Positions 21,659 through 40,968 of a stretch of DNA of 64,000 bases are shown here, one piece after another. The stretch lies in assembly GCA_963813025.1 (NCBI GenBank), contig CAWEXO010000013.1:576001-640000 (forward strand), written 5' to 3'. The notes below the pieces were generated by a model. That model did no database searches, was not told where the DNA came from, and worked only from the letters and a program-made list of their open reading frames with translations. Origin of the DNA: an uncultured Verrucomicrobiae bacterium (lineage in GTDB: Bacteria; Verrucomicrobiota; Verrucomicrobiia; Chthoniobacterales; JAFAMB01). Each line of letters starts with the position of its first letter. Positions within the stretch are counted from its first letter, which is position 1. The position numbers were made by a program, and so were the translations under genes.

Positions 21659-22872
21659 GTGATCGGTAAGACCGTTCGGCCAGTTTCTCTATTTGCTTTC
21701 GCTTTCTTCAAGGAAGTAGCCACCATTACTGACCCGGTGCTCGATTCGGTTGATGGGCTGCTTGACGACCCGGGCTTATTGGCTTTGAGCACTCGGGCTT
21801 TGACGAGCCGCTCGCCAGGCTCAGGCAAAGTTGGCCGCGAAGGAATTGCGCCGGATCGGCTGCTGCGCTGTGCGGTGCTTAAGCACATCAAAGGTTGGTC
21901 CTACCGTGAACTGCACCACGAACTGCGAGTCAGCCTTCTCTATCGACGCTTCACGCGCTTTTATGAGGATCCGATTCCAGATTTTAGCAATCTGTGTCGG
22001 GCTTTTGCGCTCTTTGGCAAGGAAGGCACTCCAGCAGATTCACCAGCAGATCGTAGAGCAGGCCAAAGAGGCGACCATCCTTGCCGGAAAGAAGCTGCGC
22101 ACCGATACCACCGCGGTCGAAACGAATATTCACCACCCAACCGACAGCTCGTTGCTGGCCGATTCAGTGCGGGTCATGAGCCGGTCTTTGCAACGTATCG
22201 CCGGAGGTTGTCAGGAATCGGAGCTTCGCATTGTCCATCATGCTCGGGCGGTCAAACATCGAGTGTTGGAGATTGGCCGAGCGGCCCGGACTTGTACGCA
22301 AGCAGGCCAGGAGCAGTTAAAGCAAAGCTATAAAAAGCTCATCGGACTGACCCAAGGAGTAAGGACTCAGGGCCTATCGGTGCTTACGGCTCTCAAAAAT
22401 GGCCAATTAGTGGCCCGGCAGGAGACTTCTTTGAAGGTCCTTGCAGCAGAAGCTTCTCTCAAACATTACCTGCCCTTGGTTGAGAAAGTTATCGCTCAGA
22501 GTTGGGCGCGAATTTTCCAGGCACAGACGCGCCATCCGGAGAAAATCTTGAGCCTCTTTGAGCCCCACAGTGTGGTCATTCGCAAGGGTAAAGCTCACAA
22601 ACCCAATGAATTTGGTCGCTTGGTCCGGATCGACGAAGTCGAAAACGGGCTGGTCAGCAATTATGCTGTGGCCCCGGGCAACCTTTGCGATCGGCAACGG
22701 TGGATGCCGGCGCTGGAAACACATCTGGAGCGATTCGGTCGAGCACCAGAATTGGCTGCGGCTGACCGAGGCTTCTGGAGTAGTGCCAACGAAAAGGCTG
22801 CGCTTGGAGCTGGGAGTCAAGCAAGTAGTGCTGCCGAGCTGCGGTCGCTTAAGCGCCGCCCGAGCTGCGCGA
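21659..22872 (+). pseudogene. ISNCY/IS5-like DDE transposase, frameshifted (~22030) and 3'-truncated by IS256
   Basis: GREG..LLR..VLKH..GWSY; RTDTTAVETNIHHPTDS; ILSLFEPH...KGKAHKPNEFG; AADRGF. Confidence 0.85.
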
Positions 22873-24280
22873 GAGCTATAACCGAATTTTGTGGATGAGG
22901 AGATAAAGAAAGGCGCATCCTTTCAGTGAGAAAAAGAAACACGGCAGCCTCACTCGAGGACGCCAAAAAGAAAGGATGCACCAATGCCAGAGAATAAAGT
23001 GGTCTCGCTTGATGAGCGAGCAAAAGATGAAGAGAAGCCCTTCCTGGAACAGTTACTGCAGGAAGGGGCCAGGAAGCTGTTACAGGCGGCAATCGAGAAT
23101 GAGGTGATCGACTATATCCAATTCCACAAAGATCAGCGGGATGAGAATGGGCAGCGGCTGGTGGTACGCAATGGACATCTGCCGGAGCGGGAGGTGGTCA
23201 GTGGAGTGGGTCCGATCCGGGTTCGTCAGCCACGGATCCGGCATCGCGACCAAGGTCGATTTTCCAGCGCGATTCTGCCCAAGTATATGCGTCGGGCTCC
23301 CAGCGTCGATGCTTTGATTCCAGCCCTTTACCTCAAAGGGATCTCAACCGGAGATTTCAGCGAAGCGTTGACAGCGATTTTGGGCGAAGGAGCCAGTGGG
23401 CTTTCAGCCACCAACATCGTCAGACTCAAGAGCAGTTGGGAAGCCGATTACAAGGCATGGACTCAGCGTGACTTGAGGCAGAAGCGTTACGTTTATTGGT
23501 GGGCCGACGGCGTCTATTTCAACGTCCGACTCGACGAAGAGCGAACCTGCGTGCTGGTCTTGATCGGAGCCACCGAGGATGGCACCAAAGAACTCTTAGC
23601 TGTTGTCGACGGTTATCGCGAAAGCACCCAATCCTGGCGTGAACTGCTTGGGCAGCTCAAACGCCTAGGCCTGTCCGCCGCGCCGAAGTTGGCCATCGGT
23701 GACGGTTCGCTCGGCTTCTGGATCGCTCTGCAGGAAGAATATGGCCCGATCGCCCAGCAACGTTGTTGGGTGCATAAGACAGCCAACATCCTGGATAAAA
23801 TGCCCAAGAGTGTGCAAGGTAAAGCTAAGCAACTCATCCATGAAATGTACCTGGCGCCGACCCGCAAAGCAGCTCTGGCGGCCTACGATCAGTTCATCTC
23901 CAGTTACCAAATCAAGTTCCCAAAAGCCTGCGAATGCTTGGACAAAGATAAAGAAGTCCTGTTTACCTTTTACGACTTCCCAGCCCAACATTGGCCGCAT
24001 TTACGGACCACCAACCCCATCGAATCCACCTTTGCTACCGTCCGATTACGAACTCACCGAACAAAGGGTTGCGGTTCACGAATCGCGACACTGACAATGG
24101 TCTTTAAACTCGGTCTGGAAGCCCAAAAGCATTGGCGCCGGCTTCAGGGCTTCGAACTGATCCCAAAGGTAGTTACTGGTGTCCGGTTCGTCGATGGCGA
24201 AGAACAAACCCAACAGGCCGCTTAATCGATCATTTCAAAGGATGCGCCCGTTCCCAATACACAACTTTTGACAATATCTC
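22873..24280 (+). mobile_element. IS256-family insertion sequence
   Basis: Imperfect terminal IR (gagctataaccgaattttgtg vs reverse complement gagatattgtcaaaagttgtg, 14/21) plus subterminal ggcgcatccttt/aaaggatgcgcc. Confidence 0.85.
22984..24225 (+). CDS. IS256 family transposase
   Basis: RNGH, LYLKGISTGD, WADGVY, AIGDG, QRCWVHK, RTTNPIES. Confidence 0.96.
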   Translation: MPENKVVSLDERAKDEEKPFLEQLLQEGARKLLQAAIENEVIDYIQFHKDQRDENGQRLVVRNGHLPEREVVSGVGPIRVRQPRIRHRDQGRFSSAILPKYMRRAPSVDALIPALYLKGISTGDFSEALTAILGEGASGLSATNIVRLKSSWEADYKAWTQRDLRQKRYVYWWADGVYFNVRLDEERTCVLVLIGATEDGTKELLAVVDGYRESTQSWRELLGQLKRLGLSAAPKLAIGDGSLGFWIALQEEYGPIAQQRCWVHKTANILDKMPKSVQGKAKQLIHEMYLAPTRKAALAAYDQFISSYQIKFPKACECLDKDKEVLFTFYDFPAQHWPHLRTTNPIESTFATVRLRTHRTKGCGSRIATLTMVFKLGLEAQKHWRRLQGFELIPKVVTGVRFVDGEEQTQQAA

Positions 24281-24438
24281 TTCGGCTATGACGGTAGAAG
24301 CGAACCTTGCCGCTCCACCCGATATGCTCCCACCTCTTAGCGGCAACAAAGCGAAAATACAACTGAACCATTACTCTGGTTAATCTGTGGGGCGCCAGTG
24401 GTCGCCAACCGCTGGCCCTTCTTTTTCCTCAGATGGGC

Positions 24439-24662
24439 TCATGGCTGGGTTGCTTTCTTCCGGGGACCCCCGGTGCGCGGGAAACCCTTGCCTCGGGCCA
24501 GAATAAATTTGTCCAGAGTCTCTTTCGTAAAAAAATACCGGCCTTTAAATTTATTGGACGGCAGTCTGTCGGTATAGACAAAATACATGAGACTGCCATG
24601 GTCCAAGCCCACGTATTTTGCAGCTTCTTTGCTGTTAGGTCGTTTTCGGTAACTGTGGTCAT
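24439..24662 (-). pseudogene. Excisionase-type HTH protein, frameshifted near N-terminus
   Basis: After MTTVTENDL the alternate frame reads SKEAAKYVGLDHGSLMYFVYTDRLPSNKFKGRYFFTKETLDKFI. Confidence 0.65.
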
Positions 24663-24673
24663 TTCAATAAGTA

Positions 24674-25225
24674 CTAATTGATTTTTAGGTGCTCGGAACA
24701 GTTCCTAACTGTCTTAGCTATTGGCCCACCGTTAGGCTTCTCGTACAGCCACAGAAGTTTCTGCTCCCGCCCGTTATCCCCTCGCGTTACGCACGGCAAC
24801 CGCGTCAGCCGCACCGCGGTTAGTGCGCCAGGATCGGCCCCGAACGGGATCAGTAGCGGCATAAGCTTGTCGCGCACAATGCGGTCAAAGTCTTCTTTGG
24901 ATCCTGCCCCGGTGCGGAACAAGGCATGCACACTCCGGTTGCCCGAGGTGTAAAGCGCGACAATGGGGAGGTGGAGCTGCATTAGTAACCGCAGCCATAG
25001 ATCCTCCGGTGCTAGGTCTGACTCAAGAACAGCATGGCGAAAGCTTGTCAGATTTCCCTCTGACCGGATAGACCCGTTAACCACCTCGCCATTGACTGGA
25101 TTACTTAAAATCCAACAGCCATCATTGTTCTTAGCAATGTACCTGGCCAGCAGATCCGCGGACCTCTCGTCTCCGACGTTGTAAATAAACCCGACCTTGG
25201 AGTTTTTATTCTTGGTGACGAACAC
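24674..25225 (-). CDS. RepB/AEP-like primase domain, probably N-terminally truncated
   Basis: FRHAVLESD, LPIVALYTSGNRSVHAL, ADP...VRLTRLP. Confidence 0.6.
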   Translation of the reverse strand: MFVTKNKNSKVGFIYNVGDERSADLLARYIAKNNDGCWILSNPVNGEVVNGSIRSEGNLTSFRHAVLESDLAPEDLWLRLLMQLHLPIVALYTSGNRSVHALFRTGAGSKEDFDRIVRDKLMPLLIPFGADPGALTAVRLTRLPCVTRGDNGREQKLLWLYEKPNGGPIAKTVRNCSEHLKIN

Positions 25226-25248
25226 CTTTTCGCCGGTGAGAGATTCTT

Positions 25249-26391
25249 TCAGAACGTCACACGCGCTGCCATAGCCTGGCTGTGCTCATCGCGGAGGTGA
25301 CCATAGGTTCGCATCGCCAGGGAACCGCCATCCGAATGACCAAGCCAGCGCGATACGATGGGAATGTCCACCCCGGATTCAATACAACGGGTGGCGAACA
25401 GGTGACGAAGGTCGTGATGCGTAAAGCGGGCGATCCCCAGTCTGGCGCATGCCCGGTCAATGGCTTTCTGGCATTCAGTGACTGCAAGCACGTATCCGGC
25501 CTTTCTCCGGGCCGCAGAACGCGGGTAACGCGGCGTCTGGCGCAGGTCGATAAGCAGCTTTGCCAAAGGCTCGATAATCGGAATCCAGCGAGTCTTGCCG
25601 CTCTTGGTGGAGTTAAGGGGATCGCCACAGATTTTGATTCGGGCACCGTTTTCGTCTACATGATCCCAGAGCACGCACCGCGCCTCATCGACTCGACAGC
25701 CGGTGTAAGATAAGAACTCAACCAAGTCTGCCGAACACTGACTGACCGCGCCCTCGGCGCTGCGGATTTCTTTAACGAGTGCCGCGAACTGAGTGCCAGT
25801 AGGTATCCGCATCGTCTTCTGCTTGGGCGTAATCTTGCCGATGACGTTCGCCGGATTGTCTAGAATAGCGCCGTGTTCAACGCCAACATCCAAGATGTGC
25901 CGAAGGGTGTCGACAGTGTTATTGAATCGGCCGGCTGAAATGGTTTTCTGTGCTCCGTCGGTCTTCCACCCATGGCCATTGGCCCGCTTTGAATTTAAGA
26001 AGACCTTGGCCCACTCCCGGCATTGAGATTGGCTGATCGCTGAAATTCTTGTGTCAGCTAATCCGGGCCATGAACGAAACAAAGTTTTGATCGTCTGGAA
26101 CCGATAATCCTTGCTCGATTGTTTGATCTCACTATCAGTTTCGACCTTGGCCCGGTAGAGTTCAGCGGCTTGGCCTAGCGTCGGTTTTCCAGACAGAAGG
26201 GCGTCGGATATGTTGCGGGTCTTGTTGATCTCTTGGAGGACCTTCGGCGCTTGGGCGCGGGCTATCTCGAAGGAAGTTGTCTTAAGAGCTTTCCACATCT
26301 CGCTGCCTTGCCGGAAGCCACGCACATAGTACCTTCCGGAATCACGATGGCGATAGAGATGCTGAACTTTGGTTTGAATCCATGTGGCCGT
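25249..26391 (-). CDS. Tyrosine integrase of the tRNA-Arg island
   Basis: YTGCRVDE, KSGK, HDLRH, LGHSDGG, TYGH; frame open upstream of GTG 26325 to ACG 26391 (TATWIQTKVQHLYRHRDSGRYYVR). Confidence 0.92.
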   Translation of the reverse strand, partial: TATWIQTKVQHLYRHRDSGRYYVRGFRQGSEMWKALKTTSFEIARAQAPKVLQEINKTRNISDALLSGKPTLGQAAELYRAKVETDSEIKQSSKDYRFQTIKTLFRSWPGLADTRISAISQSQCREWAKVFLNSKRANGHGWKTDGAQKTISAGRFNNTVDTLRHILDVGVEHGAILDNPANVIGKITPKQKTMRIPTGTQFAALVKEIRSAEGAVSQCSADLVEFLSYTGCRVDEARCVLWDHVDENGARIKICGDPLNSTKSGKTRWIPIIEPLAKLLIDLRQTPRYPRSAARRKAGYVLAVTECQKAIDRACARLGIARFTHHDLRHLFATRCIESGVDIPIVSRWLGHSDGGSLAMRTYGHLRDEHSQAMAARVTF

Positions 26392-26434
26392 AACAGCACT
26401 GTACCCGAACCCACCGTGAACGCAACCGTGAAAA

Positions 26435-26511
26435 GCGCTCTTAGCTCAGGTGGATAGAGCAAGGGATTTCTAATCCCTAGGTCACAGGTTCGAGTCCTGT
26501 AGAGCGCACCA
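26435..26511 (+). tRNA. tRNA-Arg (TCT)
   Basis: Acceptor stem gcgctct/agagcgc, anticodon arm aggga-tttctaa-tccct, GGTTCGAGTCC T-arm, encoded CCA. Confidence 0.97.
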
Positions 26512-26559
26512 CCAGATGAATTCAAGAACACCACTGACGACTTCAGAACATCCTCCATC

Positions 26560-26967
26560 ATGACCGAACAACCTGCTTTAGCCGAATACCTCGTGATTTC
26601 ACGGGGACAATGGGACCCAACCCTTTCGGGGAGTGAAATACAGAGCGCGATCGATCAGTTCTACACTTGGTATGAGCGATTGGCGAATGAAGGAAAAATT
26701 AAGCGAGGGAGTCGGCTCACGTACGAAGGCAAAACGATCGCGGGACAAAATCTGGTAACCGACGGTCCATTTGGCGAAACCAAGGAAGTGATTGGTGGTT
26801 ACTGGTTCATTCTCGCGAACAGCCTCGACGAAGCCGTGCAGATCGCCAAAGGCAACCCCTGCTTGAACTGCGGCATTTTTTGCGAAATCAGGCCCGTCGA
26901 TTCCCAACGCGCAACCCCGGAAAATACCCGGGCATCGAGGGCTGATAGAATTAGTGATGACCGATGA
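26560..26967 (+). CDS. YciI family protein
   Basis: VTDGPFGETKEVIGGYWFI...EAV...P...EIRP. Confidence 0.9.
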   Translation: MTEQPALAEYLVISRGQWDPTLSGSEIQSAIDQFYTWYERLANEGKIKRGSRLTYEGKTIAGQNLVTDGPFGETKEVIGGYWFILANSLDEAVQIAKGNPCLNCGIFCEIRPVDSQRATPENTRASRADRISDDR

Positions 26968-26983
26968 CCGATGACCGATGACC
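26956..26983 (+). repeat. (GATGACC)4 heptamer tandem repeat
   Basis: Four perfect units overlapping the YciI stop; same unit as near 437-460. Confidence 0.85.
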
Positions 26984-27042
26984 TGCACGCACGACTTTTC
27001 TCTGACGTTTACCGTAGTGCTGGGCTAACCCGCGAAACTCCG

Positions 27043-28172
27043 CTAGTACTTAGTTGCTTTAGTTCTTTATATTTATGAAAAATTATGATTTGTTGGATGG
27101 ATGGCAACGGGTCGCATCAAACTTTCTGTGGAAAAGCGCAAGCTCTTGGAGGGTTGGAGTCGAGCGCAACGGGTCGAACACCGGCTCAAGGTCAGGAGTC
27201 AGATTATCTTGAAGGCGGCAGCGGGCTTGAGTGGACGTGCGATTGCCAAGAGCCTGCGCATTCCCGAGGTGACGGTGAGTAAATGGCGGCGGCGCTTTGT
27301 GCGCCAAGGCCTGGCTGGCTTGGAAGACGCGCCACGCAGTGGAAAGCCGGCCAAGTATGATCAAATGACGGTCAAGCGGGTCTTGGCGCTGCTGGATGAA
27401 GATCCACCGGCGGGCTACGGGCGCTGGAATGGGCGACTGCTGGCGCAGAGTCTGGCCGATGTTTCCTCCGATCAAGTCTGGCGCATTTTGCGCCAACAAG
27501 GCATTGAATTGGAACGGCGCCGCAGCTGGTGCATTTCCACCGATCCGGAGTTTGTGCGCAAGGCCGCTGACATTGTCGGTCTTTATCTCAATCCGCCCCA
27601 GAATGCGCTCATCTTGGCCATTGATGAAAAACCAGCCATTCAAGCCCTGGAAAGAGCCCAAGGTTGGATTCGCTTGCCCAATGGCAGGGCGCTGACGGGT
27701 TTTAGCCACGAGTACAAGCGCCATGGCACCTCCACTCTCTTTGCCGCCCTCAACATTGCCAGCGGCCAAGTGCAGGCTGGTCATTACCGGCGCCAGCGCC
27801 GACGGGAATTCCTGGAGTTTATGAACCAGGTAGTTGCCGGAAATCTCGACAAAGAAATTCATGTGGTCTTAGACAACCTTGCGACCCATAAGCCAAAGCA
27901 AGATCGCTGGTTGAAGGCTCACCCCAATGTGCATTTTCATTTCACTCCAACCCACGCTTCTTGGCTCAACCAGATTGAGATCTGGTTTAGTATCTTGAGC
28001 CGCCAAGCCCTCCAGGGGGCAAACTTCACCAGCGTGGCAGAGCTGCGCAACGCCATCGACACCTTCATCAAGAACTACAATAACAATGCGGCTCCCTTCG
28101 AATGGACCAAATCCCAGGTACATCAGGGGAAAGTCGCCATACATATAACTAACTTACGCAATTAGGCACTAG
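27043..28172 (+). mobile_element. IS630-family insertion sequence
   Basis: CTAG at both ends; ~30 bp imperfect IR ctagtacttagttgctttagttctttatat vs reverse complement ctagtgcctaattgcgtaagttagttatat. Confidence 0.92.
27101..28165 (+). CDS. IS630 family transposase
   Basis: LEDAPRSG, IDEKPAIQAL, EYKRHGT, VLDNLATHK, HFTPTHASWLNQIEIWF. Confidence 0.96.
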   Translation: MATGRIKLSVEKRKLLEGWSRAQRVEHRLKVRSQIILKAAAGLSGRAIAKSLRIPEVTVSKWRRRFVRQGLAGLEDAPRSGKPAKYDQMTVKRVLALLDEDPPAGYGRWNGRLLAQSLADVSSDQVWRILRQQGIELERRRSWCISTDPEFVRKAADIVGLYLNPPQNALILAIDEKPAIQALERAQGWIRLPNGRALTGFSHEYKRHGTSTLFAALNIASGQVQAGHYRRQRRREFLEFMNQVVAGNLDKEIHVVLDNLATHKPKQDRWLKAHPNVHFHFTPTHASWLNQIEIWFSILSRQALQGANFTSVAELRNAIDTFIKNYNNNAAPFEWTKSQVHQGKVAIHITNLRN

Positions 28173-29140: not shown

Positions 29141-29240
29141 CCATCACCCGAAGTGGTGGGTTCGCTAAAAAGTCCAGATAAACGAATCAAGATTTTAAAG
29201 CAAACCCACCGCTGAGCAACGGCGGTGGGTTTTTTATTTT
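29141..29240 (+). promoter_or_regulatory. Attenuator-like leader with alternative hairpins
   Basis: ccatcac/gtggtgg (1:2), gtggtgggttcgct/agcaaacccaccgc (2:3) and terminator (3:4); TGG TGG GTT CGC TAA in segment 2. Confidence 0.6.
29202..29240 (+). terminator. Intrinsic terminator
   Basis: aaacccaccgc-tgagcaacg-gcggtgggttt followed by a T-run. Confidence 0.85.
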
Positions 29241-29273: not shown

Positions 29274-29435
29274 ATGAACAATAACCAAGACATCGAGCTG
29301 AACCTGGAGCAACAGATGGCTGCTCTCGCCCAATTGTATCTTGAGTTGGCTCTGCCCTTGTCGGCAGCTGTTGAGGCTGCCCTGGCCGACCTGCAGGACC
29401 TTGACGCCGAATTTCTGGTCGCGGAAGCTGCCTAG
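29274..29435 (+). CDS. 53-aa acidic helical small protein (not in ORF track)
   Basis: GGAG RBS; MNNNQDIELNLEQQMAALAQLYLELALPLSAAVEAALADLQDLDAEFLVAEAA; stop overlaps the cca start (TAGTG). Confidence 0.65.
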   Translation: MNNNQDIELNLEQQMAALAQLYLELALPLSAAVEAALADLQDLDAEFLVAEAA

Positions 29436-30784
29436 TGGCTCTACCGGCAAACCTGGTGCGCGCAACATCGTGGCAAACCGCTACTTCCCTGGTCCGAAGA
29501 TTGCAGGGCAACGGTTTTGTCGCCTTTTTTGCGGGGGGCAGCGTGCGGGACGCCTTGCGTGGGATGCCCTCGAAAGACATCGACATCGCGACCAGCGCAA
29601 CTCCGGCGGACGTCCAGAGGTTGTTTCGGAAGACGGTCCCGGTTGGAGTTCAATTTGGGGTGGTCCGCGTGCTGGAAGCGGGATGCGAGTTTGAGGTAGC
29701 CACGTTTCGATCCGATGGACGGTATATCGATGGGCGCCATCCGCAGTCAGTACGGTTTTCCTCGCCGGAAGAGGATGCGCAGCGGCGTGACTTCACGATC
29801 AACGGGATGTTCTATGACCCGATCGCGGAATCAGTGTTGGACTTCGTCGGAGGTCAGGCAGACATCGAGCGCCGCCTGATTCGAGCCATTGGTGAGCCCG
29901 CGCACCGGTTCCGGGAAGATCGTCTTCGCCTGCTCCGGGCCGTCCGGTTTGCTGCGACGCTTGGCTTTTCGGTCGAGCCGCTTACCTGGAAAGCACTTCA
30001 ATCGCAAGCAGCCGAAATCGGGCAAGTAAGTCTGGAACGGATTCGCGATGAGCTCATGAAAATTCTATCCCATCCAGCACGTCTACGCGGACTCGATCTG
30101 CTGGATGCGAGCGGATTGCTCGCAATTGTCTTGCCCGAAGTCTTTTCCTTGAAAGGTGTGGAACAGCCCGCGGAATTTCATCCCGAGGGAGACGTTTATG
30201 TTCATACCAGGAAAATGTTAGAGTCTTTGGAGCCAGATTCGCCGCCGTTGCTTGTCCTTTCCGTCTTGCTTCACGATATTGGTAAGCGACCAACCCAGAC
30301 GTTTGATCCGCAGGAGAACCGGATTCGCTTCAATGGCCACGATCGGGTGGGAGCGGAGATGACGGAACGAGTGCTAACCCGGCTGCGCTTCTCGCGGGCC
30401 GAGATCGATGCAGTGGTCGAAGCGGTCCGCAATCACATGGTTTTCAAAGATGTCCAGCGGATGCGGCCGGCGCGTCTGCGCCGCTTTATGGCCCGGGAGA
30501 CTTTCCCGCTGGAGATCGAGTTACACCGAATTGATTGCGAGAGCAGCCACGGTAGCATCGACAATTACCATTTCCTCAAAGACAAGGCCGCCGAGTTCTC
30601 GGCAGAACCTTTGATCCCGCCGCGGCTTCTGAGTGGCAGGGATCTGATCGCGCTCGGATTGAAGCCCGGACCACTGTTCGGGAAAATTCTTGAGGCGGTT
30701 GAGACGGCGCAATTGGAGAATGAGATCGGCACGAAGGAAGAAGCGCTCCAGTTCGTGCGGAGATTGATCGGAGAGGGGAGCTGA
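29435..30784 (+). CDS. cca: CCA tRNA nucleotidyltransferase with HD domain
   Basis: AGGSVRD, KDIDIAT, EVATFR, RRDFTIN, EDRLRLLRAVRF, FHPEGDV..HT, LLHDIGK. Confidence 0.93.
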   Translation: MALPANLVRATSWQTATSLVRRLQGNGFVAFFAGGSVRDALRGMPSKDIDIATSATPADVQRLFRKTVPVGVQFGVVRVLEAGCEFEVATFRSDGRYIDGRHPQSVRFSSPEEDAQRRDFTINGMFYDPIAESVLDFVGGQADIERRLIRAIGEPAHRFREDRLRLLRAVRFAATLGFSVEPLTWKALQSQAAEIGQVSLERIRDELMKILSHPARLRGLDLLDASGLLAIVLPEVFSLKGVEQPAEFHPEGDVYVHTRKMLESLEPDSPPLLVLSVLLHDIGKRPTQTFDPQENRIRFNGHDRVGAEMTERVLTRLRFSRAEIDAVVEAVRNHMVFKDVQRMRPARLRRFMARETFPLEIELHRIDCESSHGSIDNYHFLKDKAAEFSAEPLIPPRLLSGRDLIALGLKPGPLFGKILEAVETAQLENEIGTKEEALQFVRRLIGEGS

Positions 30785-30882
30785 AGCTCAAGGAAGTTCG
30801 AGGAAGTTCGAGGAAGTTCAAGGAAGTTCAGGGAAGTTCAGGGAAGTTCGGGGAAGAAGGAAGTTCAAGGAAGTTCAGGGAA
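30783..30882 (+). repeat. (RGGAAGTTCR)n decamer array, left bracket
   Basis: About 9-10 units, some degenerate, starting at the cca stop codon. Confidence 0.95.
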
Positions 30883-30948
30883 TTGTCCGGGTTTGGTTCT
30901 TGCGAAAATCGGCTTGATCACAATAAAGAAACGTTCTATTTCAATGTT

Positions 30949-31335
30949 ATGAAATCCGCAAAAACGTTTCGAGACTTGGTGGTCTGGCAGAGAGCACATC
31001 AATATGTCCTGCAGTTATATAAATTTACTGAGTTATTCCCGAAATATGAGCAGTTCTGCTTGACCTCCCAGATGAGGAGGGCCGCTATTTCCATTCCAGC
31101 CAATATCGCCGAAGGGTTCAAAAAACGGAGTCGCGCGGACAAAACTCGCTATCTGAATATCGCACAAGGGTCACTGGAAGAATCACGATACTATCTCATT
31201 CTAAGCAACGACCTAGGATACGGTGTTGTGTCTTTACTGGAGGCAGAACTAGAGCATGTTTCACGCCTTTTAATTCGGTACGCAAATGCAATTGCAAAGA
31301 ATCAAAATGATCCGCGCGAGGTTTCCCTTCCCTGA
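30949..31335 (+). CDS. Four helix bundle protein (23S rRNA intervening-sequence protein / Avd-like family)
   Basis: FRDLVVWQRAH, FPKYEQFCLTSQMRRAAISIPANIAEG, YLNIAQGSLEE..YYLILS.DLGY; more AT-rich than its neighbours. Confidence 0.95.
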   Translation: MKSAKTFRDLVVWQRAHQYVLQLYKFTELFPKYEQFCLTSQMRRAAISIPANIAEGFKKRSRADKTRYLNIAQGSLEESRYYLILSNDLGYGVVSLLEAELEHVSRLLIRYANAIAKNQNDPREVSLP

Positions 31336-31409
31336 ACTTCCCTGAACTTCCCTGAACTTCCCTGAACTTCCCTGAACTTCCCCGAACTTCCTTGAACTTC
31401 CCTGAACTT
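31328..31409 (+). repeat. (CCTGAACTTC)8 decamer array, right bracket, inverted relative to 30783-30882
   Basis: 8 units; the first supplies the TGA stop of the four-helix gene. Confidence 0.95.
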
Positions 31410-31414
31410 GCATC

Positions 31415-32508
31415 GTGCGTCCCGCGACCCGTGTGCTCAAGGCAGGCTTGGCGGCCCCGGAAGCTGGGGAACCTTTCCTCGCCGGTCCGACTTTTGCCGC
31501 TCCGTTCCATACGCCGGGCGACCCAGCCGATTCACCGTATAGCTACGGAAGGTTGGGCAATCCGACCTGGGTGCGCTTGGAAGCGGCGATCGGATCGCTG
31601 GAGGGTGGGGAAGCCTGTGTGTTCAGCTCGGGAATGGCCGCCGTTTCTGCCACCCTCGGCTGTTTGATAAGACCGCATATGAGCGTGGTCTTACCCTCCG
31701 ACGGCTACTACGCGGTTCGACAGCTCGCCCGAGCCATGGAAGAAAAAATGCACGTACAGCTTCGCACCGCCACTTCCCAGAATGACCTTTTCGGGTTGAT
31801 CGAAGGTGCGGGCATACTCTGGTTGGAAACGCCAACCAATCCACAGCTTGAGGTCTATGACATAACAGTTCTCGCTGCGGAGGCGCACCGTTGTGGAGCT
31901 TTGGTCATCGTCGATAACACCACAGCCACGTGCCTCGGGCAGCAACCGCTGGAGCTTGGGGCCGACGTTTCACTGGCGAGCGGAACCAAAGGCCTCACTG
32001 GTCATAGCGATATCCTGCTTGGATATGTGGCAAGCCGCGATCCGGAGTTGATTTCAAGGATGCGAACCTGGCGCTCGCAAAATGGCGCCATTTTAGGGCC
32101 AATGGAGGCATGGCTGGCACATCGTTCTCTCGCTACTCTCTATTTGCGGGTACAACAACAGTGCAGGGGCGCGTTGCAAATAGCCGAGTTTCTAAGTGAA
32201 CAACCGAAGGTACGTTTTGTTCGCTATCCCGGTCTGAAGTCCGATCCGGCGTTTCCGGTCGCTTCCCGGCAAATGCGTTATTTCGGTCCGATCGTCAGCT
32301 TCGTTCTCCCGAGCAGAGAAAAGGCGGACGCTTTTTTGAAGGCGTGCAAGCTCTGGAGGCGACAAGCTTCGGTGGAATTCATTCCAGCGCGGAGCGCCGG
32401 GCCAGATGGGGCGGCGATCAGGTCGAGGACGGGTTTATCCGCCTAAGTGTCGGTTGCGAAGATCCCGCTGATTTGTTGGAGGACCTGGAGCAAGCATTGG
32501 CTAAATAA
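31415..32508 (+). CDS. Cystathionine gamma-lyase/synthase family PLP enzyme, frameshift near 32353
   Basis: YGRLGNPT, FSSGMAA, WLETPTNP, VDNT, SGTKGLTGHSD; C-terminal EATSFGGIHS...IRLSVGCED lies in another frame ending TAA 32508. Confidence 0.88.
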
Positions 32509-35967: not shown

Positions 35968-36012
35968 GGGAAGAAGAAGTTCGAGGAAGTTCAGGGAAGT
36001 TCAAGGAAGTTC
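35968..36012 (+). repeat. (RGGAAGTTCR)~4 decamer array, left bracket of second instance
   Basis: Same unit as 30783-30882; abuts the ileS start codon. Confidence 0.92.
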
Positions 36013-36161
36013 CTCCTGGAGTAAGACGCACGCCCTCGTGCGTCACGTCGCAGATACGGGCGAGGCCGTCCGCCTGCGTGCCCGCTCCGCGGCACCATGG
36101 CGCGACAAGGTTCGCGCTACCCATGCGATCGCTCAGGAGCGAAACACGGCCCGGCGGCGCC

Positions 36162-36233
36162 TCCCTGAACTTCCCCGAACTTCCCCGAACTTCCTTGAAC
36201 TTCCCTGAACTTCCTCGAACTTCCCTGAACTTC
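36162..36233 (+). repeat. (CCYGAACTTC)7 decamer array, right bracket of second instance
   Basis: Same unit as 31328-31409; ends 9 nt before the site-2 protease ATG. Confidence 0.92.
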
Positions 36234-37346: not shown

Positions 37347-37372
37347 AGTGGGCGAAAGGGCGAATGGGCGCT
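37347..37372 (+). repeat. G-rich GGGCGAAN octamer units, complementary to the array at 37570
   Basis: gagtgggcgaaagggcgaatgggcg just after the protease stop. Confidence 0.7.
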
Positions 37373-37569: not shown

Positions 37570-37705
37570 ACTCGCCCTTACGCCCACTCGCCCTTACGCC
37601 CACTCGCCCTTACGCCCACTCGCCCTTACGCCCACTCGCCCTTACGCCCACTCGCCCTTACGCCCACTCGCCCTTACGCCCACTCGCCCTTACGCCCACT
37701 CGCCC
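37570..37705 (+). repeat. (ACTCGCCCTTACGCCC)8.5 perfect 16-mer tandem array
   Basis: Counted directly; built from two related octamers. Confidence 0.97.
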
Positions 37706-40393: not shown

Positions 40394-40448
40394 ACGGAAA
40401 ATCATGCGGCTTAGCTGATCGAAACGCAAGGGGCGTGGTGAGTGGCGC

Positions 40449-40968
40449 CGAGTCCCGAGTCACTGGTCACGAGTCCCGGGTCGCGAGTCACGAGTCCCGA
40501 GTCGCTGGTCCCGAGTTGCGACTCCTGAGTCCCGAGTCGCCGGTGCGCTGCGAGAACGCCTGGTACATGTTCATTATGGTCGTAGCAGCGGGCCGGTCCG
40601 GAAAAATGTGATTGTGGGTAAGTCGCCAATTGAACCCGACCGGCAAAGCGCCCAACGTTTGTCTTTGCTGGAAAATGCCCCCTGGTTTTGAGCACTTTGC
40701 GGCTTTCGCTCTTTCCAGTTGCAGAAAGAGAGCGAATTACGAAGCAGATGCACGATGCAGGTCTCGGGACTAGTGACTCGAGACGCGGGACTCGCAACTC
40801 TTTTTACAGATCTTGTTGAGAACAGCTCAGACCTCTTGATGGTGTCCTGGTTTCGGTGTCCACTATTACCATTCTGCGATGCCAACCACTCGGGCCTCGT
40901 AACTCGGGACTAGTGACCCGGGACTCGGGACTCGTTAACTCGGGACCGGGGACTCGTAACTAAGAACT
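40449..40968. repeat. Inverted degenerate heptamer arrays: GAGTCCC/GAGTCAC type at 40449-40543; ACTCGGG/ACTCGTA type at 40762-40800 and 40888-40968
   Basis: gagtcccgagtcactggtcacgagtcccggg... vs ...actcgggactagtgacccgggactcgggactcgtt. Confidence 0.88.

Follow-up and report, generated by a model that had tools for sequence, protein, structure and literature searches.

The locus studied here raises the question of why a small gene for a four-helix-bundle protein should lie between two arrays of one short word in opposite orientation, enclosed in turn by two ordinary host genes. The window, which is the whole stretch of 64,000 nucleotides that was analysed, carries all of the following features on its forward strand: the CCA-adding enzyme gene cca (29435..30784), a left arm in which a purine-rich 10-base word is repeated about 10 times (30783..30882, with one 7-nt slip near 30856), an AT-rich leader (30883..30948, 38% GC), the four-helix-bundle gene (30949..31335, 128 aa), a right arm of 8.3 units of the reverse complement of the left-arm word (31327..31409), and a cystathionine gamma-lyase-like gene (31415..32446) that starts 5 nt past the right arm. 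TRF assigned both arrays a period of 10, with 10.3 copies and 84% matches on the left and 8.3 copies and 94% matches on the right. The stop codon of cca (30782-30784) shares bases with the first unit of the left array, and the four-helix ORF, which begins with ATG at 30949, takes its stop codon (31333-31335) from the right array. The preliminary description thus held for the arrays and their inverse relation, for the bases shared with the end of cca, for an ORF stop taken from the repeat, and for the 5-nt spacing ahead of the lyase gene. A chance control with four permuted words returned no decamer arrays.

The enclosed gene had been described as an AT-richer four-helix bundle, and this was upheld: its GC content was 45.5% compared with 58% for both neighbour genes, and its product passed the curated cut-offs of PF05635 (E 1e-33, 115.9 bits vs 33.8) and TIGR02436 (E 2e-32, 111.9 bits vs 24). 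The protein was basic (19 K+R, 13 D+E), its nearest named homologs belonged to Verrucomicrobiota, which makes a host from this phylum likely, and the family alignment contained invariant polar residues at Y24, E34, Q41, S48, N52, E55, S75 and E78. To our knowledge, this four-helix-bundle protein has no active site, catalytic activity or catalytic motif. From its homology to 2GSC (Xcc0516, E 1e-18), a ring-shaped assembly is predicted for it; Xcc0516 was reported to be a homopentamer, as cited in PMC4990558. A search of the region upstream of the ORF (30883..30948) for a sigma-70-like promoter found none.

The two arrays were mutually reverse-complementary, with longest arms of 74 nt at 92% complementarity, and register-shifted pairings 10 nt apart were possible. 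It had been proposed that a read-through transcript folds into a slidable duplex of about 80 bp with the ORF in the loop. The loop and the 10-nt shifts were retained, and the main contiguous duplex was shortened to about 74 bp. The RNA-folding check called for at the time was run on positions 30770-31425; it predicted a stable stem that loops out the ORF, at -263.4 kcal/mol (z -11.7 relative to 20 shuffled sequences). Outer arm units held 15 mismatches vs 7 for inner units, a weak difference drawn from 14 arm rows with one arm counted twice. Among four DNA runs, which had short contigs, one, possibly from the source sample, covered the junction of arm and ORF with near-identical sequence. One DNA-run joint between 30849 and 31359, one side of which measured 29 nt, was set aside and may stem from another repeat pair. 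Near position 32354 the lyase gene was 4 nt shorter than in the same-genus genome described below, which shifted the frame and truncated the conserved C-terminus; a contig of run X1 crossed this position gap-free. Ahead of cca, the segment 29000-29435 resembled an attenuator leader: it held a short ORF, a hairpin with a T-run (29202-29232) and, ending immediately upstream of cca, a small acidic ORF. Further upstream (21659-28165), inspection of translations indicated a cluster of ORFs that resemble transposases, together with one that resembles a tyrosine integrase. The cassette itself contained no transposase, in agreement with the earlier account.

Whether the cassette had been inherited with its neighbours was addressed by comparing the genome of the window (G000) with the only same-genus genome (G001), of which 2.39 of ~4.2 Mb were compared. 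At the cca-lyase junction of G001, where the cca product was 91% identical, the four-helix gene was absent, and an element of 201 nt whose arms repeat a 9-base word began at about the same base. This inserted element also supplied the stop of the G001 cca, giving a different C-terminal tail. The empty-site comparison that had been recommended at this junction thus showed that the cassette is not vertically fixed. The notion that it had entered a housekeeping operon was abandoned, because cca and the lyase gene were adjacent in only 1 of 29 relatives' loci and therefore do not form a conserved operon.

Seven of 19 decamer sites were syntenic between the two genomes, and G001 had decamer arms at two of them, a short hairpin remnant at one and no arms at four; one of the armless sites was reduced to a 9-nt gap vs 193 nt in G000. 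The other 12 decamer sites, as well as nine cassette queries, had no resolvable ortholog because of the 2.39 Mb compared. When four-helix cassette sites could be resolved, the gene was present in one genome only at 6/7, which with two genomes is compatible with gain or loss alike. At the seventh site G000 retained a deleted remnant, and an intact 86%-identical copy was located elsewhere in G000. Near-clean empty sites were found, and seven short-allele cases showed no fixed target-site duplication; two empty sites (L367 and L044) showed a 5-nt overlap and kept about one word copy. Arms of one word around those of another were recognised by eye in three cases, one of them at the tip of a minimal decamer hairpin, and a strict automatic test for fully nested pairs returned none. 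A stack of arms of four words (10-, 8-, 9- and 7-base) occupied one junction (L128, G001:C2:243.0-243.4 kb; G000:C14:292.8 kb) and stood 2 kb from a broken four-helix gene. Syntenic sites carried another word in 23/67 and 34/74 cases, and the same lenient test scored 833/2576 ordinary junctions of at least 60 nt; reuse of junctions by different words was not clearly above this baseline.

Beyond what the preliminary description had covered, the same decamer occurred in gene-less pairs across the genome, and other members of the protein family carried other words. G000 contained 29 decamer arrays, and in all 7 of its 7 close decamer pairs the purine-rich arm came first. Five short inverted pairs lacked a gene and had interiors of 72-149 nt, which resembled neither one another (no match at E<1e-5) nor the four-helix gene; a gene remnant was looked for in the five interiors and none was found, and they held no trace of a copying step. 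Since these interiors were not copies of one master and carried no gene remnant, simple MITE-like copying was excluded and assignment to MITEs was rejected. One such pair lies 4.6 kb downstream of the window cassette (35976-36233), with forward-strand arms at 35976..36012 and 36162..36233 and a partly multicopy interior of 149 nt (36013..36161), at the junction where an M50 peptidase gene and a gene that by inspection is ileS-like diverge. Its outer arms were common to G000 and G001, and the interiors between them were unrelated. A gene-less inverted pair of a 7-base word was also present at 40448..40961, and this word by eye was the one framing another four-helix gene (G000:C8:48.7 kb). Over 130 decamer units the core was fixed and the edges varied by purine transitions. 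Units followed one another head-to-tail with no spacers, and a CRISPR-like array was rejected on these grounds.

Other repeats of the window were recorded alongside. An inverted tandem pair with an 8/16-base unit lies between the M50 peptidase and isomerase genes (37350-37370 and 37570-37705), its right array having 8.5 perfect copies. Solo right-type arrays were seen for a 7-base word at 26956-26983, where the array supplies the end of a YCII-domain ORF, and for a 9-base word at 1486-1521. Elsewhere in G000 (C12:163740-164958), decamer arms 1.16 kb apart flanked what by inspection appeared to be a broken IS256-type transposase, and the ends of this insert resembled the sequence enclosed by another gene-less pair, at C16:68 kb.

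De novo detection of repeat pairs extended these findings to words of any kind. Inverted pair rows outnumbered direct ones both in G000 (40 vs 11) and in sampled G001 (27 vs 4), and shuffled sequence gave 0; on contig C11, 10 inverted pairs were detected in the real sequence vs 0 after block shuffling. The purine-richer arm was the left one in 33/40 and 21/27 pairs, respectively. By simple gene calls made here, the outer end lay no more than 40 nt from a gene for 106/167 intergenic arrays of G000. Among the 40 pair rows, 13 were at divergent and 8 at convergent junctions. A read-through transcript cannot explain pairs at junctions of these two kinds, and their presence there points to a step at the DNA level.

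We further investigated whether each four-helix gene was associated with a word of its own. G000 had 10 TIGR02436 matches, and by eye most of these loci were framed by their own 6-, 7-, 9- or 10-base word; 5/10 scored in a strict inverted-array test. The 7 matches in G001 corresponded to 5 genes, each again with separate words. Of 224 G000 arrays located away from cassettes, 150 matched a word in the flanks of 12 four-helix or GxxExxY loci, whereas random gene sets reached 35 at the median and 124 at most (200 draws). Eleven four-helix genes were genome-specific, and the word of 9 of them was denser in the carrier genome; one gene had no arrays, and in the remaining exception the G000 word was as dense in G001, where a matching gene was absent (2.7 vs 3.3 per Mb). 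The decamer itself reached 6.6 per Mb in G000 vs 0.8 in G001, with 47 vs 3 exact 2.5-unit matches. In the density comparisons, the arms of the cassette itself are counted for G000, and 2.39 Mb of G001 were sampled. Two proteins of 81% identity carried different 7-base words. Several four-helix paralogs were pseudogenes, and their words were still abundant. Moreover, GxxExxY (TIGR04256) genes and remnants were packaged in the same way as four-helix genes, inside inverted arms of their own words (L168, L170 and L173 in G001; L169 and L171 in G000). Only 1 of 13 Y1 transposase loci had an inverted array score, and Y1 genes lay outside the window cassette. Both RT loci found in G000 were on other contigs and had group II intron RNA matches.

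The survey of four-helix gene flanks that had been suggested earlier revealed a strong enrichment. Inverted arrays stood beside 42/75 close homologs (80 fetched, 5 left out for short flanks), compared with 2/75 for direct arrays, 0/68 for shifted windows and 14/4032 for ordinary G000 genes. Similarly, relatives of another paralog, which formed a second clade (80 fetched, 69 scored), gave 38/69 for inverted arrays vs 4/69, and the homologs within the taxonomic family gave 16/27 vs 0/27. The flanks of cca had inverted arrays in 0/22 cases. Within the query clade, the left arm of one locus matched the right arm of another in 1194/5550 pairs (21.5%), as against 65/5175 (1.3%) and 25/5175 (0.5%) between clades; arm conservation within sets is inflated because both homolog sets were picked by exact peptide words. 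The cross-matching loci spanned Cyanobacteriota, Bacillota, Acidobacteriota, Nitrospirota and others, and the word was retained across phyla at 57-71% protein identity. Words in the query clade were mostly 7-base, verrucomicrobial sisters had a related 8-base word, and a G000 paralog had a 9-base word. The 10-base form was seen in this genus only (300 phylum genomes and 40 relatives searched): the decamer arm had no match in the 300 phylum genomes (E<=1e-10) nor in 39 of the 40 relatives. Some close homologs (L419, L421 and L423) carried different words.

The surroundings of these genes were diverse. Within the family, 29 upstream flanks fell into 22 neighbourhoods and 24 downstream flanks into 18. 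Four-helix genes were co-oriented with the upstream ORF in 56/67 cases and with the downstream ORF in 59/67, which fits transcription through the cassette. The 8-base word was abundant (at least 5 matches) in 12/21 family genomes with a query-clade gene vs 9/21 without, a count over 42 incomplete genomes with match scores bounded above, and present gene content therefore does not predict arrays at family scale. We make no claim of transfer because the protein tree was a quick version with 3/79 branches starred. A search of annotated phages gave no match, 35 plasmid records were matched, mostly cyanobacterial, and viral loci had inverted arrays in 4/16 cases vs direct arrays in 1/16.

Together, these results made it likely that the window cassette belongs to a family of tiny mobile cassettes in which every member has a repeat word of its own. 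That this particular cassette is mobile, with a ring-forming protein that likely binds the cognate word and depends on other enzymes, appears to us an evenly balanced proposition. On such a scheme, a gene-bearing copy of a small cassette would be gained and lost at gene junctions. The protein would bind the word on single-stranded DNA or RNA, one unit per subunit, and would have no catalytic role, leaving the work to other enzymes; candidate helpers are host repair, GxxExxY nucleases with their own arms, group II intron RTs and Y1 transposases. It would likely help these host or co-resident enzymes to seed, insert or exchange arm-bounded DNA. New units may often land at an existing hairpin apex or a single word copy, producing nested arms, and the interior may later be lost or swapped while the arms persist as gene-less pairs and solo arrays. 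The hairpin would bring the upstream stop beside the downstream start, which would make the insert tolerable, and, like the 23S intervening sequences (IVSs), it could be a substrate of RNase III. More broadly, and with somewhat less than even confidence, we propose an undescribed class of mobile elements that lack a transposase. Each four-helix protein would recognise a 6-10-base word of its own and would drive the seeding of mirror-image microsatellite arms where genes meet and at the tips of hairpins; bacterial intergenic heptamers and ORF-bearing rRNA IVSs would both be products of one system.

Other explanations were weighed against the scheme of a mobile cassette. Arms spread by a separate engine (GxxExxY nuclease, Y1 transposase, RT, or host repair with gene conversion), with the four-helix gene as cargo and the tracking of word and protein as co-inheritance, would account for the inverted arms owned by GxxExxY genes, for interiors swapped between common arms, and for abundant arrays in genomes that yielded no query-clade gene; a four-helix protein in which we know of no catalytic motif, alongside Y1 transposases and group II intron RTs, is also what such an engine would lead one to expect. 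We consider this account rather unlikely, in that nearly each abundant word has its four-helix gene, the word is kept across phyla in proteins that have diverged as described above, and Y1 loci rarely sit in arrays.

A device acting mainly in RNA, i.e. an mRNA intervening sequence whose arms form a stem that is cut by RNase III or couples translation and whose protein binds RNA, is improbable. The pairs at divergent and convergent junctions argue against it, and RNA processing alone leaves gain at new DNA sites unexplained, even though the predicted stem is very stable, the genes are largely co-oriented with both neighbours, and RNase III cuts the Coxiella IVS at the first heptamer (PMC4990558). 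As for a vertically inherited gene between microsatellites that arose by slippage and have a regulatory role, variable array length and the arms common to G000 and G001 (23/67 sites) would suit it. Slippage, however, does not make two complementary arms of fixed polarity, and the absence of the gene at the orthologous G001 site together with the many different neighbours largely refuted this explanation, which we regard as very improbable.

A family of cassettes with protein-specific words would explain long-unexplained short tandem repeats at bacterial gene junctions. It would join three questions, namely the role of PF05635, the origin of ORF-bearing rRNA IVSs, and the hundreds of polar 6-10-base repeats at gene ends. 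The pair of genomes compared here supplies more than 10 natural protein-word pairs. If the proposal is true, it describes a mobility route that operates with no transposase, and a small scaffold, a ring of protein subunits, on which evolution has repeatedly re-tuned sequence specificity. Our literature search, which left most subscription papers and bioRxiv supplements outside its scope, found no paper that connects the PF05635 family with inverted tandem arrays in places other than rRNA. There may be a preprint about tandem-inverted-repeat elements, which this search did not surface.

Among known systems, the kinship with ORF-bearing 23S IVSs that had been asserted earlier proved real. In the 23S IVS of Coxiella burnetii, tandem heptamers precede the S23p ORF, RNase III cuts at the first heptamer, and the S23p protein is thought to be unexpressed (PMC4990558). 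The window cassette shares with it the protein family, an ORF in the loop of a terminal inverted stem, an AT content above that of the host, tandem repeats before the ORF and a patchy distribution. In contrast to the Coxiella element, it lies in an mRNA junction between cca and the lyase gene, with no Rfam match in the locus, its arms comprise 8-10 units (74 bp) instead of a 28-bp stem, its word recurs genome-wide with gene-less pairs, and processing of its RNA is putative. A 23S IVS proper was rejected, as the cassette is outside an rRNA gene. The DGR accessory protein Avd is a homologous small helical protein (NF033474; PMC10053308; E 1.5e-7), but the match reached 31.7 bits vs a cut-off of 80 and the cassette has no RT gene; a DGR was rejected on this score and on the RT loci of G000, which are on other contigs with group II intron matches.

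The G-rich heptamers of Xanthomonas and Nostoc are intergenic, place their purine-rich strand just past stops and its complement just before starts, and often occur in convergent pairs (Rehm et al. 2015, PMC4692102). Arrays of the window genome show the same stop/start polarity and convergent pairs. An array of the abundant Xanthomonas heptamer spans the start of XCC0516 and is listed with no inverted partner (PMC4692102). The paper on Beggiatoaceae heptamers speculates on a mobile repeat-binding protein and names none (MacGregor 2015, PMC4679880), and the helix-bundle family has 0 occurrences in the main texts of these two papers. The arrays described here differ from both in their 10-base unit and in the variety of words, of which one genome has many and each is linked to a gene.

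REPIN-RAYT systems and TIRtrons (PMC3733652; 10.1101/2021.07.10.451892; PMC3116915) likewise place a small gene between inverted repeat copies, disperse the repeat as gene-less pairs, and maintain several gene-repeat families per genome. Unlike them, the window cassette has no HUH/Y1 transposase, its arms are tandem words and not tagged palindromes, its interiors are unconserved, and the gene itself changes place; assignment to REPINs was rejected because the enclosed gene is PF05635 and not a Y1 (HUH) transposase. The Coxiella 23S IVS and the heptamers of Xanthomonas would appear to be members of the same cassette family. In its workings, the window cassette would seem closest to an IVS-type cassette that extends to mRNA junctions and is accompanied, much as in REPINs, by a family of gene-less arms.
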